This document shows, one piece after another, positions 6,686 through 31,787 of a stretch of 32,000 nucleotides of DNA. Positions within the stretch are counted from its first letter, which is position 1. Each line of letters begins with the position of its first letter. Both the position numbers and the translations under genes were made by a program. This DNA comes from Candidatus Saccharimonadota bacterium. GTDB taxonomy: Bacteria > Patescibacteriota > Saccharimonadia > Saccharimonadales > Saccharimonadaceae. The DNA is taken from contig CP075337.1 in the NCBI GenBank assembly GCA_025349965.1, forward strand, positions 1 to 32,000, read 5' to 3'. The notes beneath the pieces are model-generated. The model was given only the letters and a program-made list of their open reading frames with translations. It made no database searches and was not told the origin of the DNA.

Positions 6686-9235
6686 GTGAAACTATCAAAA
6701 ACATACGAGCCAAATCAGTACGAGCCAAACGTTTACGCGCTCTGGGAAACCAGCGGTGCTTTTAGCCCGAAGGGGAGTGGACCAACTTTTAGCACCATTA
6801 TGCCCCCACCAAATGCCAATGGAAACCTCCACCTTGGACATGCCCTTGATATGGGCCTCAAGGACATTCTTGTACGCTACAAGCGCATGACCGGCCACGA
6901 CACTGTCTACATTCCTGGGGCAGACCACGCCGGCTTTGAGACATGGGTTGTGTATGAAAAAGAGCTTCAGAAAAAAGGCCAAAGCCGTTTTGACTTCTCG
7001 CGCGAACAACTCTACAGCCAAGTATGGGATTTCGTAAACGGCCAGCGCGGCAACATGGAGCTTCAGGTTCGCGCTCTTGGTATTAGCGCCTCATGGAATG
7101 ACCTTGTTTTCACACTTGATAAAAAAGTTATTGATACCGTCTATGGTACGTTCAAGAAGCTCTGGACTGAAGGCCTCATCTACCGCGGTGAACGCATTGT
7201 TAACTACAGCACCAAGTACCAAACGAGCTACGCCGATATTGAAGTAGATTACAAAACAGAGAAGGGGACCCTCTGGCATATTGCTTACCCGCTCATTGAT
7301 AAGATTGGTGAAATCGTTGTCGCAACTACTCGTCCCGAAACGATGTTTGGTGACGTAGCAGTTGCTGTGCACCCAGAAGATCCACGCTATAAAGAGTTCA
7401 TTGGCTCTCATGTAGTACTTCCGCTTACGGGGAGGGAAATCCCTGTTATTGCCGACGAGTACGTTGACCAAGCCTACGGCACAGGTGCTGTAAAAATTAC
7501 ACCAGCTCATGACCCGAATGACTTTGAAGTAGGGAAGCGTCACAACCTTCCACGCCTTCAGGTTATCGACTTTGACGGCAAAATGATAAACGCACCAGCT
7601 CAGTTCAACGGCCTCGAGGTAGAAGACGCCCGCAAGCGCACTGTTGCAGCCCTCCACGCCGAGGAAAGTATCCGCAAAGAAGAAGAAATTGAACACTCAG
7701 TAGGCTACGACTACAAGAGCGGTCTTCCAATTCAGCCACTCATCAAAGACCAGTGGTTCCTCAGCATGAAGCCACTCGCAGCGAAGGCAATTGAAGCACT
7801 TGAGCGTGGCGACATCACCTTCCACCCAGCTGGTAAAAAGAATATTCTCATTCAATACCTCAAGAATATTCACGACTGGAATCTTTCACGGCAAATCCCA
7901 TGGGGCATTCCAATTCCAGCTTTTCAGAACGTAGATGACGAAAACGACTGGATCTTCAATGAAAATGTTGATGAAAAGACCATTATCGTAGACGGCAAAA
8001 CCTATGTCCGCGAAGAGGATACCTTTGATACCTGGTTCAGTAGCGGTCAGTGGCCATTTATTACCACTGACGCGCTTACACAAGGCGACCTCTCTCGCTT
8101 CTTCCCAACCGACCTCATGGAAACCGGCACCGACCTCTTAGACCGCTGGATTGCCCGTATGATCATGCTCAGCCTCTACATGACTGATCAGATTCCGTTT
8201 AAGGACGTATACCTCCACGGGATGGTGCTCGATGAAAATAGCCAAAAAATGAGCAAGAGTAAGGGTAATGTTATCAACCCTATGGAACTTGTTTCCGAGT
8301 ACGGCTCTGATGCGCTTCGTCTCGGCCTCATTGCGAGCCGTAGCCCAGGACAAAACCAAGCGTTTAGCGTTGATCGAGTTATTGCAGGCCGCAACTTCTG
8401 TAATAAACTCTGGAACATCTCTCGTTTCATTCAAAGCACGCTTGGCGAGGACTACACCCCGGAAACACCAGCCGTGGTTTCACTGGCAGATCACTGGATT
8501 GTTCGTGAATTGACCAAGGCGCAAAAGGCAATTGAAACCTCACTCGCAAACTACCGCTTCGCTGAAGCAAGCGAAGCGCTTTACCACGCCATTTGGGACA
8601 GCGTCGCTGACTGGTATGTGGAGGCTTCAAAGGAAGAGCGCAACCCAGACCTTCTTGCATGGGTGCTCGAGACTTCTCTTAAACTTGCGCATCCGTTTGC
8701 ACCATTTGTCACAGAAACCATCTGGCAAACACTCCCATGGCGCGCAAATTTACTCATCGCAGAGTCATGGCCAGAAATGCCTGAATATAGCGATATCGCC
8801 GCCGGGCAATTCAAGCAGATTCAGAAGATTGTTAGTGAGGCACGCTTCGTAGGCAGCTCACTCCCTGGAAATGACCGCTACTCACTTGTATACACTCAAG
8901 ATTCACTGCTTGATGAAGCAGGAGAGTTGGTGCGACGTCTTGCCAACCTTTCTGAAGTCCGACAGACCGAACAGCCCCAAGGGCTTCGTCTCGCGCTTGC
9001 TAACCACGACGCATGGCTTGACGTCCCCGCAAAGACGCTTGAAGAGCACAAGCAAAATCTTGAAGTGCGCATTGCAGTAACGCACAAAGAAATCCAAGGA
9101 CTTGAAGGCCGCCTCTCTAACGAAAACTACGTTGCAAAGGCGCCGGCCACACTCGTGGAAGAAACCAAACTCCAACTTGAAGAAAAGCAGGCACTTGTTG
9201 AACGCCTCCGGGGTGAACTCACACTCTTAAGCTAA
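6686..9235 (+). CDS. valS: Valine--tRNA ligase
   Basis: Class I HIGH motif (PPPNANGNLHLGHAL) and KMSKS motif (KMSKSKGN), plus a C-terminal coiled coil. GTG start at 6686 with AGGAA 6 nt upstream. Confidence 0.95.
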   Translation: MKLSKTYEPNQYEPNVYALWETSGAFSPKGSGPTFSTIMPPPNANGNLHLGHALDMGLKDILVRYKRMTGHDTVYIPGADHAGFETWVVYEKELQKKGQSRFDFSREQLYSQVWDFVNGQRGNMELQVRALGISASWNDLVFTLDKKVIDTVYGTFKKLWTEGLIYRGERIVNYSTKYQTSYADIEVDYKTEKGTLWHIAYPLIDKIGEIVVATTRPETMFGDVAVAVHPEDPRYKEFIGSHVVLPLTGREIPVIADEYVDQAYGTGAVKITPAHDPNDFEVGKRHNLPRLQVIDFDGKMINAPAQFNGLEVEDARKRTVAALHAEESIRKEEEIEHSVGYDYKSGLPIQPLIKDQWFLSMKPLAAKAIEALERGDITFHPAGKKNILIQYLKNIHDWNLSRQIPWGIPIPAFQNVDDENDWIFNENVDEKTIIVDGKTYVREEDTFDTWFSSGQWPFITTDALTQGDLSRFFPTDLMETGTDLLDRWIARMIMLSLYMTDQIPFKDVYLHGMVLDENSQKMSKSKGNVINPMELVSEYGSDALRLGLIASRSPGQNQAFSVDRVIAGRNFCNKLWNISRFIQSTLGEDYTPETPAVVSLADHWIVRELTKAQKAIETSLANYRFAEASEALYHAIWDSVADWYVEASKEERNPDLLAWVLETSLKLAHPFAPFVTETIWQTLPWRANLLIAESWPEMPEYSDIAAGQFKQIQKIVSEARFVGSSLPGNDRYSLVYTQDSLLDEAGELVRRLANLSEVRQTEQPQGLRLALANHDAWLDVPAKTLEEHKQNLEVRIAVTHKEIQGLEGRLSNENYVAKAPATLVEETKLQLEEKQALVERLRGELTLLS

Positions 9236-9245
9236 TTCAGCGCAA

Positions 9246-9280
9246 TAAAAAAATCCCCAGCATTTCATTGGGGATTTTTG
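9246..9280. terminator. Bidirectional intrinsic terminator hairpin
   Basis: Stem ATCCCCA (9253-9259) pairs with TGGGGAT (9269-9275). It is flanked by an A-tract on the left and a T-tract on the right. It sits between the convergent ends of valS and ORF 9288-9620. Confidence 0.75.
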
Positions 9281-9287
9281 ATTGGCT

Positions 9288-9620
9288 TTATGTTGATGGC
9301 CAGATAATTCCGTTATCGGCTCCGAAGTGAAGTTGGACCTTCTTGCTCGTATTTTTACGGTGATCATCACGGGGTGCCTGCATATTAGGCATAACACGGA
9401 CTGAATGACGCTTAGGTGCTTCGACTGTGTGAACATGCGTATGGGCGTGTCCCTTTTTAAGAAGTGCGTCAGCCGCGGCCGTTCCAGCAATCGACGTCGC
9501 AATCACGGGAATTCCAAGGGCTAGTTGAGTAGCACGGTCAAGGTGCATATCATGAAACAAGATGCCGAAGAGTGTTGTAGTGCTCATTAAAACGGCAGTG
9601 ATGTTTAATAGTGGTGTCAT
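9288..9620 (-). CDS. Hypothetical small membrane protein (two hydrophobic segments, His/Lys-rich tail)
   Basis: 110-aa ORF with no recognizable family and no clear Shine-Dalgarno sequence. It is bracketed by a canonical promoter (9674-9702) and the 9246-9280 terminator, and it fills an otherwise 470-nt gap in a compact genome. Confidence 0.45.
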   Translation of the reverse strand: MTPLLNITAVLMSTTTLFGILFHDMHLDRATQLALGIPVIATSIAGTAAADALLKKGHAHTHVHTVEAPKRHSVRVMPNMQAPRDDHRKNTSKKVQLHFGADNGIIWPST

Positions 9621-11116: not shown

Positions 11117-11193
11117 TGGTACACCCGACAGGATTCGAACCTATGGCCTTCGGCTCCGCAAGCCGACGCTCTATCCAGCTGAGCTACGGGTGC
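11117..11193 (-). tRNA. tRNA-Arg, anticodon GCG
   Basis: 77-nt cloverleaf folded by hand. Acceptor GCACCCG/CGGGTGT, D arm GCTC-AGCTGGATA-GAGC, anticodon arm TCGGC-TTGCGGA-GCCGA, T arm ATAGG-TTCGAAT-CCTGT. The 3' CCA is encoded. Confidence 0.9.
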
Positions 11194-11302: not shown

Positions 11303-11992
11303 CTACAGCCGAAGCTTACGAACAATGATATCAACAGCGTCGAGCTTGAGCTCTTCCATCGGAAGACGGCTTCCGAGAATATCAACAATCTGCTCACCGG
11401 CTTCTTCCGGGAAATACACCGACACCCCAGGAGCGAAGCGTTTACGTGGAACGAGCATAATAGAATTGCTTCCATCTGCCGTAATAAGACCAAAAGACTT
11501 AAATTCTTCAAACGGGTGAAGTTGCTCGCCAACATAGAGCCCCTGAGTGGAGCTCAATGCATAGGTGAGTGTGCGCGCAGGACGACGAATGTATACGATT
11601 ACAGCAATCGCCATGACCAATACAAGGGCCGAAAACGTCCATGAGCGCAAAAAGAAAATATCAACTGCGACAAGTGCTATAGCGACAAACCCAAAGAGAA
11701 TATACCAAATTGGTGTCTTATCTGGGTGAATATATTCTTGAGCAGACCAGGTAATTGAGGCCTCTGGCGTGGCCTCTACAGGTGGCTCTGCTGGTACTGG
11801 AGAAAATTCCGTAGCAACAGGTGCTTCCACGGGGGCTTGAGTTTGCGGAGCCGCCTCAACAGGAGGTTGCGGAGCGGGTATAGCTACCGGTGCTTGAGGC
11901 ATAGCAGGCTGCACTGGCGCAATTGGCTGAGCACCCACTTGTGGTTGTGGTTGATTTTGAGTTGGGTCTACTTGCGGAACCTGGTTATCCAT
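11303..11992 (-). CDS. Hypothetical membrane protein with a P/Q/A-rich N-terminus
   Basis: 229 aa. About 85 low-complexity P/Q/A/V residues come first, then two TM helices (IWYILFGFVAIALVAVDIFF and FSALVLVMAIAVIVYI), then a globular C-terminal domain of about 90 aa. Confidence 0.7.
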   Translation of the reverse strand: MDNQVPQVDPTQNQPQPQVGAQPIAPVQPAMPQAPVAIPAPQPPVEAAPQTQAPVEAPVATEFSPVPAEPPVEATPEASITWSAQEYIHPDKTPIWYILFGFVAIALVAVDIFFLRSWTFSALVLVMAIAVIVYIRRPARTLTYALSSTQGLYVGEQLHPFEEFKSFGLITADGSNSIMLVPRKRFAPGVSVYFPEEAGEQIVDILGSRLPMEELKLDAVDIIVRKLRL

Positions 11993-12070: not shown

Positions 12071-12163
12071 TGGCGGAGGAGGGGAGATTCGAACTCCCGC
12101 TCCAGGTTTCCCCAGACTAACGATTTAGCAAACCGTCCCCTTCAGCCACTTGGGTACTCCTCC
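12071..12163 (-). tRNA. tRNA-Ser, anticodon GCU
   Basis: 93-nt class II tRNA. Acceptor GGAGGAG/CTCCTCC, anticodon loop TTGCTAA, long variable arm, T arm GGGAG-TTCGAAT-CTCCC. CCA is encoded. Confidence 0.9.
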
Positions 12164-12297: not shown

Positions 12298-12696
12298 ATG
12301 AAGAAACTTACCCTCCTCAGTACAATTCTTTTCACAGTCGTCGCAACATTTTTAGCGATATCTACCCCCGTTTCCGCACAAGGAAGTATTCAGCAGGGTG
12401 TTGAAGCGGCGCATGGCAATGGTCAACCAACACAACTCTTCGGTGATGCAGGTGTAATCACCTCAGTCACTAACATTCTTCTTTTTATCGTGGGTGCACT
12501 TGCGGTGATTATGATTATTTGGGGCGGCATCCGCTACGCCATCTCTGGTGGCAATAGCTCGGCCGTCACTTCAGCAAAAAATACCATTATGTACGCACTT
12601 ATTGGGCTTATCGTTGCTTTCCTCGCCTTTGCAATGGTCAACTTCGTTCTATCAGCTATTGCGCCCGGTGGAAGCAGCGGCTTTACCAACGTTTAG
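12298..12696 (+). CDS. VirB2/TrbC-like T4SS pilin-family protein (orphan paralog P1)
   Basis: Signal peptide MKKLTLLSTILFTVVATFLAISTPVSA, then two hydrophobic helices around the loop IRYAISGGNSSAVTSAKN. About 75% identical by hand alignment to the core of ORF 15077-15499. I prefer the ATG at 12298 over the one at 12283. Confidence 0.8.
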   Translation: MKKLTLLSTILFTVVATFLAISTPVSAQGSIQQGVEAAHGNGQPTQLFGDAGVITSVTNILLFIVGALAVIMIIWGGIRYAISGGNSSAVTSAKNTIMYALIGLIVAFLAFAMVNFVLSAIAPGGSSGFTNV

Positions 12697-13530: not shown

Positions 13531-13620
13531 TGGCGGAGAGGGAGGGATTCGAACCCTCGAAAGCTTTTACACTTTGCCGGTTTTCAAGACCGGTGCCTTC
13601 AACCGCTCGGCCACCTCTCC
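13531..13620 (-). tRNA. tRNA-Ser, anticodon UGA
   Basis: 90-nt class II tRNA. Acceptor GGAGAGG/CCTCTCC, anticodon arm CCGGT-CTTGAAA-ACCGG, long variable arm, T arm GAGGG-TTCGAAT-CCCTC. CCA is encoded. Confidence 0.9.
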
Positions 13621-14925: not shown

Positions 14926-14943
14926 GGCCTACCAAGCAAACAT

Positions 14944-14971
14944 AAAAGAGATACTATACAGTATCTCTTTT
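14944..14971 (+). terminator. Intrinsic terminator after hsp20
   Basis: An 11-bp stem, AAAAGAGATAC (14944-14954) pairing with GTATCTCTTTT (14961-14971), and a 6-nt loop. Confidence 0.65.
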
Positions 14972-15024
14972 ATGTTTGCCATCATCTTCCAAAGGCTCAG
15001 CGGTCCTCAGTCGGAAGATTAAAT

Positions 15025-15060
15025 AAAAAGCACCCCCGCTAGGCAGGGGTGCTTTTTATT
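15025..15060. terminator. Bidirectional intrinsic terminator (ends the pilin transcription unit on the - strand)
   Basis: Stem GCACCCC (15030-15036) pairs with GGGGTGC (15046-15052). An A5 tract precedes it and a T5ATTTT tract follows. Confidence 0.8.
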
Positions 15061-15076
15061 TTAGCTAGGCGACTGC

Positions 15077-15499
15077 TTATGCAGCCTTACCAACTTCGCC
15101 AAGCACCCAGTTCACAATCGCGAACGCAAGGAAGGCTACAACGAGACCAATAATCGCATACATGATAGTGTTCTTAGCAGACGTTACCGCGCTACTTGAG
15201 CCACCAGAGGTTGTGTAGCGAATACCACCCCAGATAAGCATGATCACACTAATCGCACCAATGATGAAGAGGAGGATGTTAACAACTGTCGTGAAGATAG
15301 AACCACTACCAAAGAGAGTAGTTGGTACATTGTCGTTCTTTGAACAGTCGATACCAGCGGCAACTCCACCTGTAGGGCCTGTGTCGCATCCGGTGCTGGT
15401 TGACTGCGCGCCTACAACACCCGCTGGCGTAAATGCCATAGTAACAGCAAGCGCAAGTACCGCTACAACACCTGCAAACTTTTTAATAAATGCTTTCAT
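15077..15499 (-). CDS. VirB2/TrbC-like T4SS pilin-family protein (paralog P2)
   Basis: Signal-peptide-like N-terminus and a Cys-bounded loop (GCDTGPTGGVAAGIDC). Two hydrophobic helices flank IRYTTSGGSSSAVTSAKN, and the C-terminus carries AFLAFAIVNWV. It has its own promoter and a strong terminator. Confidence 0.85.
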   Translation of the reverse strand: MKAFIKKFAGVVAVLALAVTMAFTPAGVVGAQSTSTGCDTGPTGGVAAGIDCSKNDNVPTTLFGSGSIFTTVVNILLFIIGAISVIMLIWGGIRYTTSGGSSSAVTSAKNTIMYAIIGLVVAFLAFAIVNWVLGEVGKAA

Positions 15500-15536
15500 G
15501 ATTATTTTATTTCCTTTCTTATAGAATCTACCGTTA

Positions 15537-15565
15537 TTTATACCATAATATTGCCACCCTGTTAA
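15537..15565 (-). promoter_or_regulatory. Sigma70-like promoter for P2 (TTAACA-17 nt-TATAAA)
   Basis: On the - strand, TTAACA lies at 15565-15560, followed by a 17-nt spacer and TATAAA at 15542-15537. AAGGAAA lies about 10 nt upstream of the ATG at 15499. Confidence 0.45.
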
Positions 15566-15588
15566 CCCTTTTGGGGTATTTTAGGGCA

Positions 15589-15969
15589 TTACTTAAACTG
15601 TGTAAGCACCCAGTTCACAATCGCAAAGGCAATGAACGCCACTACTAGTCCTACGATTGCATACGTGAGCATATTCTTCGCCTTTGAGACGCGACCACTA
15701 TCACCACCAGAGATGGAGTAGAGAATACCCGCAACTATAATCATCACGACAGACACAGCGCCTACTATATAAAGAAGTACGTTTACTATAGTGGTAAGAA
15801 TCGGCTCGACTTTTTCATCTTTCTTTTTACATACCTCACTTGTAGCATTTCCGCTACAAGCACCATCAAGGGGGTTGATCGCAGCCACCTCAGTAGCCGG
15901 TACTATTGCAGCAACCACACCAAAAAGAGCTATTGCGGCAGTTATTATATATGCTTTAATGTATTTCAT
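15589..15969 (-). CDS. VirB2/TrbC-like T4SS pilin-family protein (paralog P3)
   Basis: Signal-like N-terminus, Cys pair (ACSGNATSEVC), and the conserved core ILYSISGGDSGRVSKAKN...AFIAFAIVNWV. It starts 0 nt after the P4 stop. Confidence 0.85.
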   Translation of the reverse strand: MKYIKAYIITAAIALFGVVAAIVPATEVAAINPLDGACSGNATSEVCKKKDEKVEPILTTIVNVLLYIVGAVSVVMIIVAGILYSISGGDSGRVSKAKNMLTYAIVGLVVAFIAFAIVNWVLTQFK

Positions 15970-16257
15970 TTAAAATTTCCCTATAACAAAGTTAGTAATA
16001 GCAAATGCAGCCAGAACGATAATGAGCCCAACAACTGAATACAGAATCATATTCTTAGCCCTCGTTATACGACCCGCATCTCCACCAGAAATGGTGTACA
16101 TGAGGCCGGCGACGATAATCACAATCACCGCGACCGCGCCAGCAAGGAAATACACGATGTTAAGGACGTTTGTAAGCACTGAATCTCCACCTGTTGTTGG
16201 AACGCCCACCGTACCGGCATCTATTTTCTGCGCAACTTGTAGTAAAAAGTAGTTCAT
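15970..16257 (-). CDS. VirB2/TrbC-like pilin-family protein lacking a signal peptide (paralog P4)
   Basis: 95 aa. It has the same two-helix core (LMYTISGGDAGRITRAKN...AAFAITNFV), but no hydrophobic leader and no Cys pair. An upstream in-frame stop prevents any 5' extension. Confidence 0.8.
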   Translation of the reverse strand: MNYFLLQVAQKIDAGTVGVPTTGGDSVLTNVLNIVYFLAGAVAVIVIIVAGLMYTISGGDAGRITRAKNMILYSVVGLIIVLAAFAITNFVIGKF

Positions 16258-16259
16258 AT

Positions 16260-16691
16260 TTATTTAATAACCCCAAATATAAAGTTAACTATCGCGATTG
16301 CAGCCATGGCAATAACAAGCCCGATCACTGCATTGAGTATACTCTTGCGCGCCTTCTCAACAGTTCCCGGGTTACCACCACCGCTAATAAAAAGGAAGCC
16401 ACCATACAATATAAAGCCGACTGCAATATATACAACTACTACGAGAACCATTTCGATGATATTAAGAGCAAGTTTCCATACGAAGCCACCAATTTCATCG
16501 CTTCCACCGGAAGGCATTTCAACTGTACAGTCAGCGCCAGTCGTCAGCCCCCTGTACCATGTCGGCACCCCCAGGAGTCGATCCGTACATGCTGCAGATG
16601 CAGTAGGTGCAGGAGAGATAGTTGCCGCAAATGGCGCAGCGACAAAGAGCGCAAAAAAGCCAACTGCGATATATGCAATAAATTGTTTCAT
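16260..16691 (-). CDS. VirB2/TrbC-like T4SS pilin-family protein (paralog P5)
   Basis: Signal-like N-terminus, Cys pair (ACTDRLLGVPTWYRGLTTGADC), and core FLFISGGGNPGTVEKARKS...AAIAIVNFI. Its start overlaps the P6 stop by 1 nt (TAATG). Confidence 0.85.
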   Translation of the reverse strand: MKQFIAYIAVGFFALFVAAPFAATISPAPTASAACTDRLLGVPTWYRGLTTGADCTVEMPSGGSDEIGGFVWKLALNIIEMVLVVVVYIAVGFILYGGFLFISGGGNPGTVEKARKSILNAVIGLVIAMAAIAIVNFIFGVIK

Positions 16692-17110
16692 TAGTTAAAT
16701 ATACCCCCAGGAATAATAAAGTTGAGAAGTACATACATACCCGCAAAGGCTATGACACCTATAGCGACATTTGTAAATATACCGACAGCCTTCTTGACCT
16801 GTTCAGGATTACCCCCGGCAGAGGTGTAAAGGACTGCACCCCAGACGATACCACCAAGAGCGGCCACGCCGACACCAGCAGTAAGAATAGTAATTGCCAT
16901 GAGCAGGAGAGACCAGATGGCGCTTTTTTCAACACCACCCTTACCATCGTCATCGCCACAGCTAATAATAGCCGTCTCCTGTCCACCACACGTCTCCTGA
17001 GCAGAAACATATGCACCCTGGAAGACAGATATAGCCATAATCCCCGTTAGTGCTATTGTAATCGCGAGCGATTTTACTGCAAATCTGTTGATTTTTTGTT
17101 TTATCTTCAT
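16691..17110 (-). CDS. VirB2/TrbC-like T4SS pilin-family protein (paralog P6, most divergent)
   Basis: Signal peptide ending VSAQE, Cys pair (TCGGQETAIISC), and core VLYTSAGGNPEQVKKAV. It is the first gene of the - strand pilin operon. Confidence 0.8.
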   Translation of the reverse strand: MKIKQKINRFAVKSLAITIALTGIMAISVFQGAYVSAQETCGGQETAIISCGDDDGKGGVEKSAIWSLLLMAITILTAGVGVAALGGIVWGAVLYTSAGGNPEQVKKAVGIFTNVAIGVIAFAGMYVLLNFIIPGGIFN

Positions 17111-17206: not shown

Positions 17207-17322
17207 AAAATTACCAATTCAGCATTTTCGAGTTAAGAAGCTCGAAGGGCAAGCTGACGCGGTTGTTATTACGCCCAAGCCGACAGTGCTTTAATGTCGC
17301 CAAGTGCGAGAGGAACACCAAC

Positions 17323-18357
17323 GTGTCCGAACTCCCCAAAGAAACACCTATCAATCCTGGCATTTCGTCAGTAACTTCGCGTGAGCAGGGTGGTAGTAGT
17401 GTAACCGAACAAACAATGCCTCATTCCGGAGGCCGTAATGTACCAGAGCAACTTCGCGAACAACCAGTTCGTGAGTTTGACAACACCTCTTTAGGAGAGG
17501 CTCTCGATCAAGGGTATCTAGAAGTACCAACCTCACCATCACCAATCCCAGAGGCACAGCCAGCTGTCACTGCACCTGAAAAAAAGAAACGCAATAAGCT
17601 TCTTATAGGCGCCTCCGCAGGACTTGCCGGCGTAGCTATTGTCGCAGCTTCAGTTATCGGAATTAACGCCGCAAACTCAAACACCTCAGGTGAGGATCCT
17701 GAGGGTCCAAAAGCTGATCCAAAGGGAACAACCGAAGTTACTCCTGAGCCAAAACCCGTCGAAACAGAGAAGTCTTTTGAACAGCAGGTTAATGAACTTA
17801 AGATTGAGGCGGGTCTTTCGCCAGAAGAATACGTAGATACATTAATTGCAAAGCGAATGGTAGACTGGGAGTTTGCAGGTAAAGAACAGTACTGGAAGGT
17901 GGCGGGTGATGGCAGTAATAGCGTTGATGATATCAATACAGCGCGCAAAGCTATCGTAGCTGAACAAAACCGCGTCTTCGCAAATGCTTTATTTATTCCA
18001 GGATGGGAAAACACCGAACTTGCAAGTATAGCCGAGCGCCGAAAAATTAACCAAGAAGCAACTCTAGATACATGGGGTCGCACAAAAGCAAATATTGAAT
18101 TTGCCGGCGACACACGTGAAGAATGGCAGACCGGCATGGTTATTGAAAGGGTTGAACTTCTTGAAGAAAACCCCGATACCGGAACTCGAAAGTTTTTTAT
18201 TGCAGGGTACGAGACAAATAATGGCGACAGGGCGGCATATCAAAGCGTAAACGCTAAAAATAACGGAGCACCATGGAGCTTCACCTTCACGACGCAAGTA
18301 GTTGACGGAACGGAATATATAGCTGAGTGGTCGAACACAGAATCGCCAGCTCATTAG
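17323..18357 (+). CDS. Hypothetical bitopic membrane protein, first gene of the T4SS operon (positional candidate for a VirB8/PrgL-like component)
   Basis: I prefer the GTG at 17323, which has GAGGAA 7 nt upstream; the ORF track starts at a TTG at 17263. The protein has a disordered N-terminus of about 95 aa, one TM helix (LLIGASAGLAGVAIVAASVIGI), a P/E/K-rich linker and a globular C-terminal domain of about 190 aa. Confidence 0.7.
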   Translation: MSELPKETPINPGISSVTSREQGGSSVTEQTMPHSGGRNVPEQLREQPVREFDNTSLGEALDQGYLEVPTSPSPIPEAQPAVTAPEKKKRNKLLIGASAGLAGVAIVAASVIGINAANSNTSGEDPEGPKADPKGTTEVTPEPKPVETEKSFEQQVNELKIEAGLSPEEYVDTLIAKRMVDWEFAGKEQYWKVAGDGSNSVDDINTARKAIVAEQNRVFANALFIPGWENTELASIAERRKINQEATLDTWGRTKANIEFAGDTREEWQTGMVIERVELLEENPDTGTRKFFIAGYETNNGDRAAYQSVNAKNNGAPWSFTFTTQVVDGTEYIAEWSNTESPAH

Positions 18358-18376
18358 GATTGGCTACAGTTTACAC

Positions 18377-18416
18377 TGCATAATGTCTATGCTTAAATAA
18401 GCATAGACATTATGCA
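18377..18416. repeat. Perfect 19-bp inverted repeat (TGCATAATGTCTATGCTTA-aa-TAAGCATAGACATTATGCA)
   Basis: Read directly from the sequence. The right arm contains the ATG (18412-18414) of the VirB6-like ORF. There is no flanking T-tract on either strand. Confidence 0.9.
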
Positions 18417-21231
18417 AAAACAGACCAAACCCTTACGAGATGAAAATCCACATTTATCAAAGGTGGGTTTTCTTGTTTCTTCTTTGCATAGAAAGAAATC
18501 ATTACTTAGTCGCATCAAGATTAGTATACTTCTTGTAATATTCTCTCTCGTTACAACAATTTCTTTTTCTTCCCCAATTCATGCAAAACCATATACTGAT
18601 GAGGATATCTCAACACGAGCCATGGCATATGAGAGTGTCCTTATTCTTCGTCAGTGCCTTGCAAATAACAGTATCCATACAAAGAACACCAAATCCAACT
18701 TAAGTGATGAATCTCCACTAGAAACCGGCACGGGAAGGATGTATGTCTCATGGGACCCTGCGGTAGTAAAATACCACCCTACGCTCAAGGAAGACAACGA
18801 AGGCGCATGTGGAGAAGGAAAGGGCGCCACAAGAGGAGCGCTAAAGCGTCTCGGTATTAATGAGGTTGAGTTTATTTGCCAACTTGGCGGAAAGCGTACA
18901 TATTACGATCGAGATTCTCAGAAAACCACCACTACCGACTGTTTAGAGGGTTCGGGTAATGTTACGGCTTCAAATATTACAGACAAGCAAATCAATGAGG
19001 CTGTAAAAAAACTTACAAAATTCACAGGGTTTGACCCAGCAAACCCCGGCGATGCGGTGCGCTACCAACGTAGTTTTAATATTCTTAAAAACGGTTGCTT
19101 CGGTGGAAGTTCAATAACTAAAGAAATTTACGACAAAGAACCTAAGGGGAAGCGCTGGTCAATTAACGTATACCCGGATGGTAAGGAGTATTACAGGGGT
19201 GAACCCGGAGGGGGGAGTAATCATAACCAAAAACCTCGCGGCGCAAATGGCGACGAAAAAGGTGAAGTTAACTGTATAGAGTACTGGAATCGAACCAATA
19301 CATACTTTTCAGCATATGTGGCGTATAAAAATAACTTATCACCAGAGGAGCGAGCTGCCGAGGAGGCGAAAGAGAATATAAGTCCTGAAGCAGGAGATGA
19401 CGGACAAACGTCGTGTCGCATCGAGGGTGTGGGGTGGATTATTTGTCCAGTCCTTAATTTCCTTGGTGGCGTCACGGATGCTGCTTATGGCGGTGTTAAA
19501 GAACTTCTAAAAACACCTGCAATGGTAACTACCGCAGGCAGTAGCACAGAAGGTGTATATATCGCATGGCAAACCATGAGAAGTGTTGCCAATGTAGCTT
19601 TCGTAATCGCCTTTCTTATAATTATATTCTCTCAACTTACTTCAGCAGGGGTGAGTAACTATGGCATTAAGCGAATGCTACCGCGTCTTATTGTTGCGGC
19701 CATTCTAGTGAACGTTTCATTCTTTATCTGTGCAATAGGGGTAGACTTGTCAAATATTATTGGTTCAAATATCGTCAATCTCTTTGATGGAATTGCCAAA
19801 AGTATGCCGACACCACAGTGGAAGGATACAGGAGATTTCGGTGGCAGTGCTACTGGAGAGGGATGGCTTGGAATTATTGGTATCATCATTGCAGGTGGTG
19901 CTATAGCTATCACCACTGTATACATAGGCCTTGCAGCACTATTACCATTCCTTTTGGCAGCAATTCTTGCTATCTTAACAGTGTTTATCGTACTCACACT
20001 GCGTCAAGCGCTCATTATCCTACTTATTGTCATATCCCCACTTGCTTTTGTCGCTTACCTTCTCCCTAATACCGAAAGCTGGTTTAATCGCTGGAGAAAG
20101 TTATTCACCACCCTGCTCCTCATGTTTCCAATTATTGGAATTATCTTCGGCGCGTCAGCACTTGCATCTCAGGTTATCATGAGCTCTTCGGATAATATTT
20201 TTGTTCAACTATCTGGGGCAGCAATCGCAATCATCCCACTTGCACTCACGCCGGTTGTTATGAAGACTGCAGGAGGCGTACTTGGGCGAGTAGGCGCCTT
20301 TGTTAATAACCCAAACAAGGGGCCGTTTGATCGAATGCGAAAAGGTGCTGAATCATTAAGGAAAGATCGGCAAAACATCCGCAATATGCGCGCACTCAAC
20401 GGAAAAGGCCTGCCGGGAAGGACTGGTTTTACTCGATGGAAGGCACGGCGAGGCGCAATCACGGCTGGCCGAGAAGGTGAACTCAATAGGGCTAGATCTG
20501 AATACATTAGCGATGCTATGCAGAATAGCGCAACTTTCGCTAACTCGGTAGCTGGTGGCACCTCTGCCTTTGGCCAGATTCGTAGCGGCGCCGGTGCTGA
20601 CGCCACTCAACGAGCTCTTGCAAGTGCAATCAACACCACCTCAAAACTTGAGCTTGAAGAAATCACTGCAGCTGGAGTTGTTCTGAAAAATGCAAAGCTT
20701 GACCAAGCTCAAGTTAGAAGCTTATCAAACGGGGGAAGCGCAACAACATCTAGTGGCATGCAGCTCAACGGCAGCGGTGCGATGCGGGCAGCTGCAGTCC
20801 AGCAAGCGGTTGCATCAAATGACATATCTCAAATCAATGACCTATGGGATCAGTCTCGATCATGGGGTAATGATAAAGAAGGTAATACCTTGAGGCAAAC
20901 TCTCGCTGACAGCCTTGCATCGTCGTCATCTCGACCAGGATACATCGGTCAGGGCGCTCTTGCCGGTTTACGCACAGGCAGTAACGATAGTATTGAAAAT
21001 ACTATAAAGGAAGCTGTAAAGGCGAATGCCTACTCTCCGGAAAAAATTGCCACTGCAGATAAGGATGAATTAGCAATGGTTACCAAGACAATTAGTGGAG
21101 ATTCAGGACTCACCGACGACCAAAAGCAATCCTTCATGCTTAATGCTGAGAAGGCGCTTACTGACGAAAACCTTAATGTTAAAATATCTAAGAACCGTGA
21201 TGAGATCAAAAAGATATTGGATATTTCATAA
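18412..21231 (+). CDS. VirB6/TrbL-like polytopic T4SS membrane protein with a large Cys-rich ectodomain and a long C-terminal tail
   Basis: 939 aa. A signal/anchor segment (ISILLVIFSLVTTISFSSPIHA) is followed by an ectodomain of about 300 aa with 8 Cys. A block of at least 6 TM helices spans about aa 390-610, followed by a polar tail of about 330 aa. The start codon is uncertain because the ATG lies inside the hairpin. Confidence 0.7.
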   Translation: MQKQTKPLRDENPHLSKVGFLVSSLHRKKSLLSRIKISILLVIFSLVTTISFSSPIHAKPYTDEDISTRAMAYESVLILRQCLANNSIHTKNTKSNLSDESPLETGTGRMYVSWDPAVVKYHPTLKEDNEGACGEGKGATRGALKRLGINEVEFICQLGGKRTYYDRDSQKTTTTDCLEGSGNVTASNITDKQINEAVKKLTKFTGFDPANPGDAVRYQRSFNILKNGCFGGSSITKEIYDKEPKGKRWSINVYPDGKEYYRGEPGGGSNHNQKPRGANGDEKGEVNCIEYWNRTNTYFSAYVAYKNNLSPEERAAEEAKENISPEAGDDGQTSCRIEGVGWIICPVLNFLGGVTDAAYGGVKELLKTPAMVTTAGSSTEGVYIAWQTMRSVANVAFVIAFLIIIFSQLTSAGVSNYGIKRMLPRLIVAAILVNVSFFICAIGVDLSNIIGSNIVNLFDGIAKSMPTPQWKDTGDFGGSATGEGWLGIIGIIIAGGAIAITTVYIGLAALLPFLLAAILAILTVFIVLTLRQALIILLIVISPLAFVAYLLPNTESWFNRWRKLFTTLLLMFPIIGIIFGASALASQVIMSSSDNIFVQLSGAAIAIIPLALTPVVMKTAGGVLGRVGAFVNNPNKGPFDRMRKGAESLRKDRQNIRNMRALNGKGLPGRTGFTRWKARRGAITAGREGELNRARSEYISDAMQNSATFANSVAGGTSAFGQIRSGAGADATQRALASAINTTSKLELEEITAAGVVLKNAKLDQAQVRSLSNGGSATTSSGMQLNGSGAMRAAAVQQAVASNDISQINDLWDQSRSWGNDKEGNTLRQTLADSLASSSSRPGYIGQGALAGLRTGSNDSIENTIKEAVKANAYSPEKIATADKDELAMVTKTISGDSGLTDDQKQSFMLNAEKALTDENLNVKISKNRDEIKKILDIS

Positions 21232-21234
21232 CCC

Positions 21235-22239
21235 ATGGCCTCCTACAAAGTACCCCAAGACGTCGAAGCAGATGATAAACTCATTGGCCCGTTTAGCTTT
21301 CGCCAGTTTATCTACCTGATCATTGTTGCGCTCGCGATTGCGCTTGCATGGGGATTGGCACAGCTTTTTATTGGACTTGCCGTTATTCCACTCCCGATCA
21401 TCCTTCTTTTTGGAGCACTCGCACTTCCGTTAAGGAAGGATCAACCGATGGAAATCTACCTCGCGGCAATGGTTTCCTTCTTTCTCAAGCCGCGAAAGCG
21501 CCTATGGGATCCTGAAGGGATGGAATCAACTATTGAGATTACTGCTCCAAAAACAGTGGAGGTAAGGCGCACAAAAGATTTATCCGAAGGTGAAGCGGTT
21601 GAGCGGTTGAGTTATCTTGCAAACCTTGTTGATACGCAAGGCTGGTCAATTAGGGGAGTACAGGGAGCTCAGAATATTGCCATGAACACAGATGTTGTTC
21701 TGGAAGCGCAAGGCGCAGAAGATGTGCTTGATACTAATACATCAATTGCCAATAACTTCAGCCAGATGATGCAGGCAAGTACGCAGCGCATGCGCGAAGA
21801 GGCGAAGGAGCGAATGATGGCAGCGACTTCAATCCCAGAACCTCAACAAACAGCACCGCTCGCACCCACTCCAACTATTGCCACTGTCCAAAATGCAGTC
21901 ACAGCAGCCTATAATACACCCGCCCAGCCCCAGCAGGTCACGCCAACTCAACCACAGCAAATCGAAGCACCTGAAGTCGTGCCAGTATTCAACCCGTATC
22001 CAAATATCCAGCAGTCGGTTATTCAGCCGTTAAGCGAAGAGGATAGAGTGTCGGTGCCAGCAGAAGCGCCAAAAGAAGAGCCAACTCCCGCAAGCACTAG
22101 CGAAACAGCGCCTTCTACTGATATAATAGAACTTGCAAATAACTCTGATTTATCAATTCAGACTATTGCTCATGAGGCAAATCGTCTAAAAAAGAAATCA
22201 GAGGAAGAATCTGACGAAGTCGTTATTTCGCTTAGATAA
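21235..22239 (+). CDS. PrgI/VirB3-like T4SS membrane protein with a C-terminal extension of about 220 aa
   Basis: The N-terminus YKVPQDVEADDKLIGPFSFRQFIYLIIVALAIALAWGL plus a second TM helix matches the PrgI-family signature as I remember it (VP-x-D...DK-x-x-G-x-x-x-x-RQ plus a TM hairpin). The rest is charged and P/Q/T-rich. Confidence 0.7.
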   Translation: MASYKVPQDVEADDKLIGPFSFRQFIYLIIVALAIALAWGLAQLFIGLAVIPLPIILLFGALALPLRKDQPMEIYLAAMVSFFLKPRKRLWDPEGMESTIEITAPKTVEVRRTKDLSEGEAVERLSYLANLVDTQGWSIRGVQGAQNIAMNTDVVLEAQGAEDVLDTNTSIANNFSQMMQASTQRMREEAKERMMAATSIPEPQQTAPLAPTPTIATVQNAVTAAYNTPAQPQQVTPTQPQQIEAPEVVPVFNPYPNIQQSVIQPLSEEDRVSVPAEAPKEEPTPASTSETAPSTDIIELANNSDLSIQTIAHEANRLKKKSEEESDEVVISLR

Positions 22240-22274
22240 ACAGTCAAACTAAAGGGGTTGGGCGCACATAGGGT

Positions 22275-23204
22275 ATGCAACCAGATAATTCACAGTATAA
22301 CCAACCGGGTGTTCCTGCAGGACAGCCCTCTATACCTGATATGACAGGTGGTGCTCCTTCATACCCACAACAGGGAGTTCCCCAGCAACCTCAAGCGTAC
22401 CCTCAGCAGGTAGTACAACCTCAACCAGTAGCACCTCAGCCTGTCGGTGCTCAAGGAGCAGCAACTACTGCTGAAGAAAAAGAGACACCTAAAAATCCTA
22501 ACTCTACTCAAAACTCATTACAGCTCTCTGAAATTCGCGACAGTATGGTTATTATGAATGACGGCTCTTTTCGCGCTGTCATTGCTTGTAAATCCATTAA
22601 CTTTGACCTCATGAGCTCACGCGAGAGAGAAGGGGTTGAGTACAGCTACCAGAACTTTATTAACTCTCTTAACTTTCCTGTTCAGATTCTCGTCCGCTCT
22701 CAGCGCGTAGATATCGGACCCTACATTGAGAAATTGGTTGACACACGCCGCTCTCAAGACAATATGCTTCTTGGTGTATTGATGGATGACTATATAAACT
22801 TTATTGACACCCTTGCAGAAGAAGCAAACATTATGGAGAAGTCATTCTACATCACCGTTCCGTTCTTTCCTGAAGGAGATTTACAGAACCTTAAGGCACA
22901 AGCTGTCGGCTTCTTTGGTAAGCTTTTTGCTAAGCCACAAAATACGGTTACAAAAATTGACTCTGCTGCATACCAAAAAGCCAAAGATGAAATCGCCAAC
23001 CGTGTAAATGTCGTACAGGCAGGGTTATTCCAGATTGGCGTACAAAGCGCACAGCTCGACACTCGGGCGCTTGGTGAACTTTATTACAGTTACTACAACC
23101 CGGACACAGCACTACGCCAGCCACTTGGTGATTTTGAAAATATCGCAACCACCTTTGTCAAAAAGGCAGAACCGACACAAGGTCCTACAGGAGGAGTTCA
23201 GTAA
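22275..23204 (+). CDS. Hypothetical protein with a P/Q-rich N-terminus and a domain patterned like a VirB4 N-terminal domain
   Basis: 309 aa, no TM helix and no NTP-binding motif. Its stop overlaps the VirB4 ATG (TAATG at 23202-23206). Its motif order runs parallel to the pre-ATPase region of the downstream VirB4 (hand comparison only). Confidence 0.7.
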   Translation: MQPDNSQYNQPGVPAGQPSIPDMTGGAPSYPQQGVPQQPQAYPQQVVQPQPVAPQPVGAQGAATTAEEKETPKNPNSTQNSLQLSEIRDSMVIMNDGSFRAVIACKSINFDLMSSREREGVEYSYQNFINSLNFPVQILVRSQRVDIGPYIEKLVDTRRSQDNMLLGVLMDDYINFIDTLAEEANIMEKSFYITVPFFPEGDLQNLKAQAVGFFGKLFAKPQNTVTKIDSAAYQKAKDEIANRVNVVQAGLFQIGVQSAQLDTRALGELYYSYYNPDTALRQPLGDFENIATTFVKKAEPTQGPTGGVQ

Positions 23205-25024
23205 TGGCTAAAAAACGAAGCGCTATTGATATTGCAGCCGAGCAACGCGCTCGCGAGCAAACCGAGGTAGAACAGGCGTTTCTTAAGGGTGTATCAACAC
23301 TCCGTGATTTAATTGCGCCGAGTAGCCTTGAAATCCATTCATCCCACTTTAGACTTGGTACAAAATACGGGCGAACGCTGTATGTGTACGGATATCCGCG
23401 CGAAATCTACACCGGCTGGCTTAGTTCGATTATTAACATTGACGAAGTACTCGACGTCAGCATGTATATTTATCCTGTTGAGAGTCAGGTGGTACTTAAT
23501 AACCTCCGCAAAAAGGTAACTCAGCTTGAAGCAAGTTACGCTATTAATAGTGAAAAGGGTAAGGTTCGCGACCCAGCGCTCGAAGCCGCCATTAGTGACG
23601 CGGAAGAACTTCGCGACAAGATCCAAATCGGAGCAGAGCGCTTTTTCCGTTTTGGGCTCTATGTCACACTTTGGGCCGACAGTATGGACGAGCTTAACTT
23701 TGTTCAACAAAAAATTGAAACTATTTTTGGTCAGCAAATGGTGTTTAGTAAGGTTGCGTCCTCACAGCAAGAACAGGGACTTAACAGTACTGTTCCGCAA
23801 ATGTCTGACGAGCTTCAGATTCGTCGCAACATGAACACCGGAGCTATCAGTACAAGCTTCCCGTTCACTAGCGCCGACCTTACAGATAACTCAGGTATTC
23901 TCTACGGTATTAATATGCATAATAATGGACTTGTTATCTTTGATCGCTACCGTCTTGAAAACGCAAATGCGGTCGTCTTCGCAAAGTCTGGTGCAGGTAA
24001 GTCATTCACAGTGAAACTTGAAGCACTCCGCAGTATGATGATGGGTACAGAAATTATTATCATTGACCCTGAAAACGAATACCAAAAACTTGCCGAAGCA
24101 GTAGGGGGCGCGTACGTCCGGCTCAGTCTCAACTCACAGGTGCGCATTAATCCATTCGACCTACCGCGTGTCATTGACAGTGACGAGGCTGATGATGCAC
24201 TACGAGCAAACCTTGTAACACTTCACGGGCTCTTCCGCCTCATGCTTGGTGGTTCGCAAACTACCGCTAATGGTTCGGTTATGTCCGGCCTCACCCCTGC
24301 GGAAGAGGCGGATCTTGACCAAGCGCTTATCGACACCTATGCACGCGTAGGAATTACAAGCGACCCGCTCACGCACAACTCACCACCGCCAACCATCGCC
24401 GATCTTTACGACACCCTTCTTCATATGGGCGGGAGCGGACCAGCCCTTGCACAGCGTCTTCGTAAGTACACGACTGGTACATTCGCTGGTATTTTCAGCC
24501 AGCAGTCAAACATTGATATCAATAACCCAATGGTTGTATTTAATATTCGCGACCTTGAAGACGAACTTCGCCCTGTTGCGATGTATATCGTCCTGAGCCA
24601 CATATGGAATATTACTCGCACCATTCAGAAGAAACGTATGCTTATCGTCGATGAAGCGTGGCAACTCATGAAATACGAAGACTCTGCTAACTTCCTCTTT
24701 AGCCTTGCAAAGCGTGCTCGTAAATATCACCTTGGACTCACAACCATCACACAAGATGTCGAGGACTTCATTAGCAGCAAGATGGGCCGTGCCATTGTCG
24801 CCAATAGCTCAATTCAACTCCTCTTAAAGCAATCTTCAAGTGCCGTTGATGTCCTCTCTGATGTATTTAAGCTTACTGAAGAAGAAAAAAAGCGTCTTTC
24901 AAACTTCCCAATTGGGCAAGGACTATTCTTTGCAGGACAAAGTCACGTTCATATCCAGATTCAAGCAAGCGCAACAGAACACCAACTTATCACTACTAAT
25001 CCGAATACTAAAGCCGGCTCGTAG
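23204..25024 (+). CDS. virB4: VirB4-family T4SS ATPase (TraE/TrsE/PrgJ-like)
   Basis: 606 aa. N-domain GTKYGRTLYVYGYPREIYTGWL, Walker A FAKSGAGKSF (about 23981-24010), IIIDPENEY, Walker B MLIVDEAW (about 24638-24661), and TTITQDVEDF. Confidence 0.88.
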   Translation: MAKKRSAIDIAAEQRAREQTEVEQAFLKGVSTLRDLIAPSSLEIHSSHFRLGTKYGRTLYVYGYPREIYTGWLSSIINIDEVLDVSMYIYPVESQVVLNNLRKKVTQLEASYAINSEKGKVRDPALEAAISDAEELRDKIQIGAERFFRFGLYVTLWADSMDELNFVQQKIETIFGQQMVFSKVASSQQEQGLNSTVPQMSDELQIRRNMNTGAISTSFPFTSADLTDNSGILYGINMHNNGLVIFDRYRLENANAVVFAKSGAGKSFTVKLEALRSMMMGTEIIIIDPENEYQKLAEAVGGAYVRLSLNSQVRINPFDLPRVIDSDEADDALRANLVTLHGLFRLMLGGSQTTANGSVMSGLTPAEEADLDQALIDTYARVGITSDPLTHNSPPPTIADLYDTLLHMGGSGPALAQRLRKYTTGTFAGIFSQQSNIDINNPMVVFNIRDLEDELRPVAMYIVLSHIWNITRTIQKKRMLIVDEAWQLMKYEDSANFLFSLAKRARKYHLGLTTITQDVEDFISSKMGRAIVANSSIQLLLKQSSSAVDVLSDVFKLTEEEKKRLSNFPIGQGLFFAGQSHVHIQIQASATEHQLITTNPNTKAGS

Positions 25025-25043
25025 CGTATACTAAAAGGTAGTT

Positions 25044-27851: not shown

Positions 27852-28889
27852 CTATAGCTCTATATGTAAAAATCCGTCATACGTCAGCTTTGTCGCTGAA
27901 CTAATAATCACCTGATTATCCTTAAAATAATCAATGATATAATCCTGCCTGTCTTTATCAAGCTCAGAAAAAACGTCATCCAATAAAATAAGTGGACGTT
28001 TTCCGGTAGACTGCGCAATCATAGACTCTTCTATGCGCTTCAACGCCAGAAGGATTGTCCGCACCTCGCCACGCGAGGCAACGGAAAGAGCAGGGGAGTT
28101 ATTGAAGTTGAATACAATATCATGACGGTGCGGGCCAACACTGGTATGTTTCACAACTCTATCGTAAGCAAACTTACCCTCTAGCTCGCGGAGTAGTTTT
28201 TGTGCCGAATGATCAATAATTGTATGCGAGTAGTGCACAGTCACCTCATCGTCAGTGTGTGCAATTTCGTGGTAGTAATTATTTAATTCCTTATTAATAA
28301 GCTCGACAGCCTGGACGCGCTGTTCAATAATTTTTGCACCGTATTCACTTAACGAGATATTCCATGCAAATAAATCTTCATTAGATATGAATTCTTTTTT
28401 AAGGAGAGTGTTTCGCTGCTTAAGAGCTCGCTCATACTTCCGAAGTGTCATTCCGTACGTTGGATCTATTTGCGTAATAAAACGGTCAATAAAGAGCCTT
28501 CTACGCGCCGGGGAGCCGTGAAGAAGCCGTAGGTCTTCAGGTTCAAATAGGACAATTGGATATTTGCTTCGTGGCGAGAGTCTATACGAAGTCTTATCAT
28601 CAACAATAAAGCGTTTTTTGCCACTCGCACGAGAGGGATCAAAAGTAACAGATCGAGAGGCGTCATCATCAAGCCCAAGATCAATTCTATACCACGGCGC
28701 ATTTTGCTGAAGAATATCAGCGTCCACGCCCTTAAACGAGGTGCCCTGAAGTGCAACATACACCGCTTCCAGAAGTGTCGTCTTTCCGATACCGTTCTTG
28801 CCTGTGATTACAGTTACGCCCGAAGAAAGGGTAACTTTCTTATTCTCGTGCGAACGAACATTTAAAACAGAGAGGCTTTTGATAACCAT
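27852..28889 (-). CDS. recF: DNA replication/repair protein RecF
   Basis: Walker A GKNGIGKTTLLEA, SMC-like signature region and Walker B LILLDDVFSELD. It lies immediately downstream of dnaN. Confidence 0.92.
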   Translation of the reverse strand: MVIKSLSVLNVRSHENKKVTLSSGVTVITGKNGIGKTTLLEAVYVALQGTSFKGVDADILQQNAPWYRIDLGLDDDASRSVTFDPSRASGKKRFIVDDKTSYRLSPRSKYPIVLFEPEDLRLLHGSPARRRLFIDRFITQIDPTYGMTLRKYERALKQRNTLLKKEFISNEDLFAWNISLSEYGAKIIEQRVQAVELINKELNNYYHEIAHTDDEVTVHYSHTIIDHSAQKLLRELEGKFAYDRVVKHTSVGPHRHDIVFNFNNSPALSVASRGEVRTILLALKRIEESMIAQSTGKRPLILLDDVFSELDKDRQDYIIDYFKDNQVIISSATKLTYDGFLHIEL

Positions 28890-28890
28890 A

Positions 28891-29991: not shown

Positions 29992-30267
29992 TATTATTAG
30001 ATCCTTTCTTATTTTTCTTTCGCTTTAGTAATAGTAGGGTATGTGGATAATGTGTAAAACTGTCGATTGTTCAGAGGTGAAAAGAGGGTTTTAAGCTGTG
30101 TAAATACCTGGTGGAATTCTGCTGAAAAAATGAGGAATACTGTGTGGATATACCCAGCTTTCTTGAGCTTAGTGAGGTGCTGGCGTAGAGCTGGGGATGA
30201 GTATCCACCTGTTTCTACAGTAGGTATACCCAAGTTGTACACATTTTTTATCCAGTTATAAACAGCC
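29992..30267. other. dnaA-dnaN intergenic oriC segment with DnaA boxes, a DnaA-trio-like run and an AT-rich tract
   Basis: Perfect box TGTGGATAA at 30042-30050, with a tandem degenerate box TGTGTAAAA at 30051-30059. TAG-TAA-TAG-TAG at 30026-30037, then GG. AT-rich tract at 29992-30025. Further boxes: TGTGGATAT at 30143-30151, and 2-mismatch boxes at 30192-30200, 30201-30209 and 30248-30256. Confidence 0.7.
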
Positions 30268-31740: not shown

Positions 31741-31787
31741 TGTTAGATAGTATTGAGTACTGCTACCACTATACGCCGAGACGATAC

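Follow-up and report, generated by a model that had tools for sequence, protein, structure and literature searches.

The first 32,000 nucleotides of the forward strand of contig CP075337.1 (assembly GCA_025349965.1), referred to here as the window, come from the Saccharibacterium TM7i, a cultivated epibiont of Leucobacter aridicollis with the proposed name Leucosynbacter cicadicola (PMC9894109). The window contains six paralogous genes, A to F, all annotated in the database as "hypothetical protein", whose products are, judged by profile scores and alignment, secure members of PF18895, a family of pilins from type IV secretion systems (T4SSs). Five of these genes lie in tandem beside a T4SS operon and the sixth is a separate copy. 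Searched by exact sequence, all six proteins were located in TM7i, on a contig of 780,698 bp. They provide the VirB2-like pilin set of an origin-proximal chromosomal T4SS, and the reading that we consider probable is that this set is assembled into a heteromeric tube in which each subunit has a fixed role and E forms the shaft. On this reading, the six pilins are not interchangeable.

Six paralogous pilin genes

The five tandem genes, named in order of transcription, and the separate copy are as follows.

16691-17110, minus strand: pilin A, 139 aa, KI440_00115, first gene of the operon
16260-16691, minus strand: pilin B, 143 aa, KI440_00110, its start overlapping the stop of A by 1 nt
15970-16257, minus strand: pilin C, 95 aa, KI440_00105, the two-helix core with a short N-tail
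15589-15969, minus strand: pilin D, 126 aa, KI440_00100
15077-15499, minus strand: pilin E, 140 aa, KI440_00095, candidate major subunit
12298-12696, plus strand: pilin F, the sixth paralog, 132 aa, KI440_00070, with an E-like core and no cysteine

The intergenic gaps A/B, B/C, C/D and D/E are -1, 2, 0 and 89 nt, and the strand, lengths and gaps given for the five tandem genes in an initial annotation, made from the letters of the window alone, matched exactly. That annotation described an array of five, which stands for the tandem genes but missed F, which is unlinked from the array, 2.4 kb off, past the HSP20 gene, a ComF-like gene and a tRNA-Ser gene. A hidden Markov model (HMM) built from the six paralogs found no further pilin copies in the window. 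Plus-strand open reading frames (ORFs) at 15240-15524, 16194-16694 and 16306-16698 were disregarded as antisense shadows of the pilin genes.

Measured against the Pfam gathering cut-off of 26.6 bits for PF18895, A scored 25.3, B 37.8, C 40.5, D 46.7, E 46.0 and F 45.2 bits, so that five of the six passed and A fell just short. Pilin A is nevertheless 33% identical to B and aligns colinearly with all of the other paralogs, the identities of B to E to A being 23-33% in the window alignment. A to E share a core in which a hydrophobic helix is joined by a Y-x-x-S/A-G-G...A-K/R loop to a second helix with N-F/W-V at its end; G99, G100, A108, G118 and N130 are invariant across the alignment. The shared two-helix core proposed in the initial annotation is thus borne out by both the alignment and the PF18895 scores and, on these grounds, is not a chance pattern. 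The second profile that was tried, PF04956 (TrbC/VirB2; gathering cut-off 27.9 bits), gave a different outcome from the first, since none of the pilins reached its cut-off: C scored 27.1 bits (E = 4.9e-6), D 23.2 and E 18.1, and the Pfam scan returned no PF04956 match for A or B. These near-threshold scores suggest a distant relationship, not formal membership, and as far as their sequences allow, A to F are best described as VirB2-like in architecture and genomic context.

Leaders and transmembrane segments were called from Kyte-Doolittle hydropathy, Ala-X-Ala (AXA) sites and loop charge. In A, B, D, E and F, a basic and hydrophobic N-terminal leader with an AXA-type signal peptidase I (SPase-I) site is followed by two hydrophobic stretches, with predicted cleavage between VSA and QE in A, ASA and A in B, VAA and I in D, VGA and Q in E, and VSA and Q in F. 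The combination of leader, two helices and short basic loop that is a trait of TrbC/VirB2 proteins was therefore found in these five, whereas C consists of the two hydrophobic stretches only, with neither signal peptide nor cysteine. The hydrophobic helices reach peak Kyte-Doolittle values of 2.3-2.9 and account for about half of the mature chain. An AlphaFold2 model of E, built with 125 aligned sequences, placed helices at residues 68-96 and 102-139 with a predicted local distance difference test score (pLDDT) above 90, the outer segment being modelled at low confidence. This helical hairpin, together with the PF18895 matches and the VirB6, PrgI and VirB4 homologs encoded nearby, upholds the T4SS pilin identity that had been assigned from the window alone. 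Because the loop between the helices contains K/R in A, B and E, the three that were scanned, the positive-inside rule would place this loop in the cytoplasm, with the N-terminal segment and the C-terminus outside. As had been noted, four of the five tandem genes encode exactly two cysteines, Cys41/Cys51 in A, Cys35/Cys55 in B, Cys38/Cys47 in D and Cys38/Cys52 in E, enclosing 9, 19, 8 and 13 residues, respectively.

Two other assignments were rejected. Type IV (T4P) pilins do not fit, given that there was no N_methyl (PF07963) match and that the leaders end in AXA-type sites. A holin or small-transporter fold, named in the initial annotation as the competing outcome, found no footing either, as the Pfam matches to MatE, DctQ and TctB were far below their cut-offs.

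The expression signals of the array fall at its two ends and in the D-E spacer.

17149-17121, minus strand: promoter-like element of A, TTGCAG (17149-17144), a 17-nt spacer and TACTAT (17126-17121)
15565-15537, minus strand: promoter-like element of E, TTAACA (15565-15560), a 17-nt spacer and TGg-TATAAA (15545-15537)
15518-15512, minus strand: Shine-Dalgarno site of E, GAAAGGA, in the 89-nt D-E spacer
15016-15066, minus strand: intrinsic terminator hairpin of E, GC-rich and followed by a T-run, -37.9 kcal/mol for a 75-nt stretch

The promoter-like element and the terminator that had been ascribed to the last gene, E, are both real and are conserved across species. Among 27 distinct D-E spacers from related species, which otherwise vary, 23 contain the pattern TTAACA-N16-18-TAYAA, and GAAAGGA recurs in most of the spacers as judged by eye. 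A hairpin with a U-run lies 3′ of E in nearly all related loci; in the window it is flanked by an A-run as well as a T-run and could also serve the convergent HSP20 gene. The promoter-like element of A ends 10 nt before the ATG and no Shine-Dalgarno site is present, which suggests that the A-D mRNA is nearly leaderless, and in most loci a cTTGCa-N17-TAyyyT element is found equally far from the start of A (judged by eye, with no statistics). A simple promoter/terminator scanner missed both the E promoter, the -10 of which ends in A, and the E terminator, the loop of which was called as longer than 8 nt, and its counts were no higher than in shuffled sequence; cross-species conservation was used instead. 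Next to the E terminator hairpin, 11 nt past the stop of the plus-strand HSP20 gene, AT-rich sequence forms a perfect inverted repeat of 20 bp around a 4-nt loop (14936-14979), which may be an HSP20 terminator or a regulatory hairpin.

Conserved gene order, B-C fusion and selection

Conservation of the array was followed in 80 Saccharimonadales loci, fetched by their VirB4 (83-97% identical), and in eight metagenome loci, which were scored by ORF calls and a search with the six-paralog HMM, each match being assigned to the best window paralog. Among the 26 complete arrays, the order was A-B-C-D-E in 14 and A-[BC]-D-E in eight (one with an extra E), four carried an extra terminal E/F-type copy, and 23 more loci, either cut by a contig end or redundant, fit the order A-B-C-D-E. 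None of these 49 loci violated the order: each position was orthologous, A was first everywhere, and there was no gain, loss or shuffling of A to D.

B and C are encoded as one ORF in eight of the 26 complete arrays and are fused in 81 of the 120 best B homolog clusters (213-243 aa). Loci with such a fusion include L003 (at 8830-9534), L006 (at 8711-9460), L011, L012, L016, L017, L023 and L061. The fusion homolog proteins, found within P0124-P0239, are ~230 aa long with two pilin domains, and C is the counterpart of their second half. One such fusion was modelled as a leader and four long helices (pLDDT 82, predicted template modelling score 0.64). The lack of a leader in C is explained by the fusion form, in which the N-terminus of C is already placed outside. 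In TM7i, the B and C genes are 2 nt apart and in different frames, indicating that their split is real and not a sequencing error.

Mean pairwise identity within orthogroups A to E was 49-70% for the cores and 28-34% for the outer segments, with the E core the most conserved, at 70.5% compared to 49-60% in the other orthogroups. The cysteine pair is conserved in orthologs of A, B and D with a paralog-specific spacing of ~9, 18-21 and 8 residues, respectively. Ratios of nonsynonymous to synonymous substitution (dN/dS) were estimated by the Nei-Gojobori method for the window against the near-identical locus L001 and the more distant L009, with dS saturated for the distant pair. Core dN/dS was 0.03-0.09 in the comparisons that gave a defined value, namely those of C, D and E with each relative and that of A with L009 alone, and outer-segment dN/dS was 0.02-0.39 where estimable. 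The dN/dS comparison that the initial annotation had proposed for the cysteine loops and the core therefore gave values below 1 wherever estimable, in core and outer segment alike, and these estimates point to purifying selection throughout with no sign of diversifying selection. Lineage-specific amplification with diversifying selection, of the type seen in Anaplasma and in Bartonella Trw, was not found here.

These results separate the two possibilities that had been raised for a heteropolymeric filament. A division into major and minor subunits is supported by the orthology and the fusions, whereas exchangeable loops are opposed by dN/dS values below 1 and by the paralog-specific cysteine spacing. 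The earlier choice of E as the candidate major subunit also gains support, from the E-specific signals and from the highest core conservation, although both are features of sequence.

A putative heteromeric tube and its alternatives

A close published parallel is Ca. Southlakia epibionticum ML1, in which the tandem pilin genes SEML1_0014-0019 are all essential and SEML1_0024, a separate pilin gene past Hsp20 and comFC, is non-essential in transposon sequencing (Tn-seq) (Wang 2023, Cell, PMC10633639, Table S1). The TM7i locus, in an organism of the same class, has the same layout: the array is flanked by VirB4, PrgI and VirB6-like genes and, at its opposite end, by Hsp20 and comFC, and it is located near the start of the genome numbering. 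In both organisms all pilins belong to PF18895 and form a tandem array with one separate convergent copy, F lying at the position of SEML1_0024. The two differ in that Southlakia has six tandem genes (132, 185, 103, 126, 127 and 138 aa) and TM7i has five; from lengths and order, the extra Southlakia gene would appear to be a second D/E-type copy.

In the assembly that we propose, each pilin would form a two-helix hairpin in the cytoplasmic membrane. Insertion of A, B, D, E and F would depend on their Sec/SPase-I leaders, while the short N-tail of leaderless C would have to cross by a different route. The S-G-G...A-K loop, being positively charged, would point toward the cytoplasm and the variable N-terminal segment would lie outside, stapled by a disulfide in A, B, D and E. 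The VirB4/VirB6/PrgI machine would draw the pilins out of the membrane and build from them a short hollow tube across the wall toward the host. A to D, with one promoter and overlapping or abutting frames, would occupy low-copy, fixed places in a base or in a tip/adaptor complex, with B beside C; E, with its own promoter, strong Shine-Dalgarno site and terminator, would be the abundant polymerising shaft subunit; and F would be a dispensable E-like spare. This heteromeric model is the best fit because it accommodates the fixed order, the B-C fusion, the purifying selection, the essentiality in Southlakia and the separate signals of E.

A tube that such an assembly might correspond to has been seen by cryo-electron tomography (cryoET) in Mycosynbacter amalyticus, where it is 8.6-9.0 nm wide and 61-70 nm long, has a barbed tip and runs from the inner membrane to the host; the authors did not tie it to the T4SS (PMC11880426), and we found no literature that links the two. 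That a heteromeric VirB2-type tube of A to E, with E as the shaft and A, B-C and D at the tip or base, is this lance or conduit seems to us possible but doubtful. Conjugative pili are of a width similar to that of the cryoET tube. For TM7i itself, a tube-like structure where the cell meets its host has been reported along with pili-like appendages ~8 nm in width (PMC9894109), and the A-E tube may also be this tube-like structure. The same paper states that TM7i encodes no filamentous appendage besides type IV pili, which contrasts with the pilin array present in its genome. If true, the proposed tube would be without precedent on two counts, as a T4SS pilus demonstrated in a monoderm and as one that requires several pilin species, and its proposed use would be the drawing of host material, not the export of DNA.

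A number of points weigh against this assembly. No such filament has been seen, and we infer its existence, the stoichiometry of its subunits and its cargo. The role of E as a major and abundant subunit is drawn from its expression signals, and the link between the pilins and the cryoET tube is speculation from a match in size. The essentiality of the upstream genes in the Southlakia Tn-seq could partly reflect polar effects. Among E orthologs, the cysteine pair is present in 16 of 27 and absent in eight, and therefore the disulfide is not required for the role of E. Comparison with known pilins gave little: hhalign against a reference set of seven annotated VirB2/TrbC proteins, encoded beside VirB1/VirB3 genes on plasmids, was colinear across both helices and weak (P = 0.004-0.006, probability 7-8%), and an HMM profile of E homologs matched nothing among PDB sequences up to E = 10. 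Foldseek searches of the PDB with the E model and the B-C fusion model returned nothing at E <= 0.001, the A. pernix conjugative pilus surfacing only at E = 4.7, a search that was uninformative since a bare helical hairpin is not discriminating.

One alternative is that there is no extended pilus and that the pilins are parts of a channel spanning membrane and wall, a short stalk or a pseudopilus, with the paralogs lining successive layers. Monoderm T4SSs of the related mating-pair formation (MPF) class MPF-FATA function without pili (PMC12102498), no T4SS filament was recognised in imaging of TM7i and N. lyticus, and the fixed order of A to D, their stoichiometric coupling and the B-C fusion are as compatible with a defined complex as with a filament. 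We nonetheless consider such a channel unlikely, because the separate high-expression signals of E are more typical of a polymerising major subunit and because the cryoET tube, in a Saccharibacterium, is ~9 nm wide and extends 60-70 nm beyond the inner membrane.

It has also been proposed, for the VirB2 families of Anaplasma and Bartonella Trw and, in Patescibacteria, by Quinonero-Coronel 2025, that paralogs of this kind are interchangeable variants; applied here, A to F would be interchangeable major pilins whose variable outer loops widen host range or evade host defences. The outer segments are indeed unrelated between paralogs and, in A to E, show lower conservation than the cores do. An additional E/F-type copy is present in tandem at some loci, and host adaptation has been suggested for the published arrays (PMC12102498). 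Interchangeable subunits are, however, hard to reconcile with orthology at every position in 49 loci, with outer-segment dN/dS below 1 and with a cysteine spacing that is paralog-specific and conserved. In Southlakia every gene of the tandem array is essential by itself, B and C frequently form one polypeptide, and C, unlike the other pilins, has no leader, all of which makes this alternative improbable.

The equivalent TM7x genes were first labelled a "Sec secreted array" or "effector gene cluster", the TM7x and activated-sludge papers call the same genes putative effectors, and some papers of 2023-2025 keep the effector view. Apart from this label, signal peptides in five of the six pilins would suit Sec-secreted effectors delivered to the host, but two long hydrophobic helices per chain, which would anchor in the membrane or pack in a filament and leave no soluble mature protein after export, the PF18895 and TrbC family matches and the absence of a signal peptide from C make that function very hard to credit, and these results speak against the "effector cluster" label, which persists in some recent papers.

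The preferred reading, a heteromeric tube of fixed subunits, bears on a group of organisms that make no amino acids, nucleotides or lipids of their own and live attached to other bacteria. The T4SS of Saccharibacteria is essential, yet PMC11665869 calls its role completely unknown. What most separates this system from other monoderm T4SSs is the pilin array. Fixed, non-redundant positions, with E as the likely shaft, offer a guide for which gene to tag, deplete and image, and the cultivation of TM7i makes the array experimentally tractable.

Relation to known systems and genomic neighbourhood

Arrays of this kind have been described before. Quinonero-Coronel 2025 (Microb Genom, PMC12102498) reported 441 VirB2 arrays of 2-11 genes in 383 Patescibacteria assemblies, with ~25% mean identity, as tandem PF18895/PF04956 genes in the vicinity of virB4 that are abundant in Saccharimonadia and lie close to dnaA, without a relaxase in the neighbourhood, and a 2025 FEMS review discusses such pilin arrays. 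The TM7i array fits this description, lying in a T4SS cluster with VirB4 and VirB3/VirB6 homologs and having paralog identities to A of 23-33%. The novelty implied by the initial annotation consequently does not hold, since arrays had been published earlier (Wang 2023; PMC12102498; the 2025 FEMS review); the TM7i array is a correct rediscovery of a described feature and is not new. While PMC12102498 regards the members as variants that may help in adapting to different hosts, the comparison within Saccharimonadales shows orthology that is fixed by position, fusion of B with C, and purifying selection. The additions made here are the selection analysis, the internal promoter of E, the B-C fusion and the positional orthology, which refine the published picture and leave it unchanged.

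The TM7i pilins share with VirB2/TrbC/TraA of diderm T4SSs a cleaved leader, two hydrophobic helices and a short basic loop, as well as the location of their genes in a T4SS locus with VirB3, VirB4 and VirB6 homologs. Unlike those proteins, they belong to a monoderm host and comprise six paralogs instead of one, with one member (C) lacking a leader; their mature N-terminal segment is longer and contains a cysteine pair, all are below the PF04956 cut-off, and pilus formation is putative. A tblastn search with C against 72,556 plasmids gave no match, and C therefore has no close plasmid relatives among them.

The sole NCBIfam model matched by B to F was NF045849 (22-31 bits, E 1e-7 to 1e-4, below its 40-bit cut-off), the Mbov_0395 family of a Mycoplasma integrative and conjugative element, an 80-position two-helix protein of a monoderm T4SS encoded beside the Mbov_0397 VirB4. 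Being under 40 bits, B to F are not members, and the Mycoplasma family differs further in being named as a single conjugation protein. The 309-aa neighbour of the TM7i pilins has weak matches to TrsD and to the Mycoplasma VirB4 model. There is a hint here that monoderm MPF-FATA-type systems may have a VirB2-like protein of their own and not one borrowed from diderms, a question left open in PMC12102498.

The surroundings of the array contain the following features.

17263-27851, plus strand: divergent T4SS core operon, adjoining the pilin array
27852-31797, minus strand: recF-dnaN-dnaA, directly past the T4SS operon
13531-13620, minus strand: tRNA-Ser (TGA)
12071-12163, minus strand: tRNA-Ser (GCT)
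11117-11193, minus strand: tRNA-Arg (GCG)

The T4SS operon encodes a 364-aa protein, a 939-aa VirB6/TrbL_3-like protein, a 334-aa PrgI/VirB3-like protein, a 309-aa TrsD/TraC-like protein, a 606-aa VirB4 ATPase and a 935-aa M23 peptidase. Its first gene (17263-18357, plus strand) matches no Pfam or NCBIfam family; the ORF as called mechanically opens with a TTG, whereas the L001 homolog is called at 344 aa, so that the true start may lie elsewhere. The five tandem pilin genes are ~6 kb from virB4, and the sixth is 2.4 kb farther. Since recF, dnaN and dnaA lie downstream of the T4SS operon, the whole system sits beside the replication origin, and an origin-proximal T4SS has been reported for other Patescibacteria. 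No coupling protein or relaxase turned up among the ORFs scanned, a scan that did not cover every ORF of the window.

On the opposite flank of the array are the HSP20 gene, the gene for a ComF-like phosphoribosyltransferase, the three tRNA genes and paralog F. An ORF at 11303-11992 (minus strand) has no Pfam match, its near-identical L001 homolog has a weak N_methyl match, and loci L004 and L005 carry two N_methyl proteins at the equivalent place; judged by these matches, type IV pilin-like genes may adjoin paralog F.

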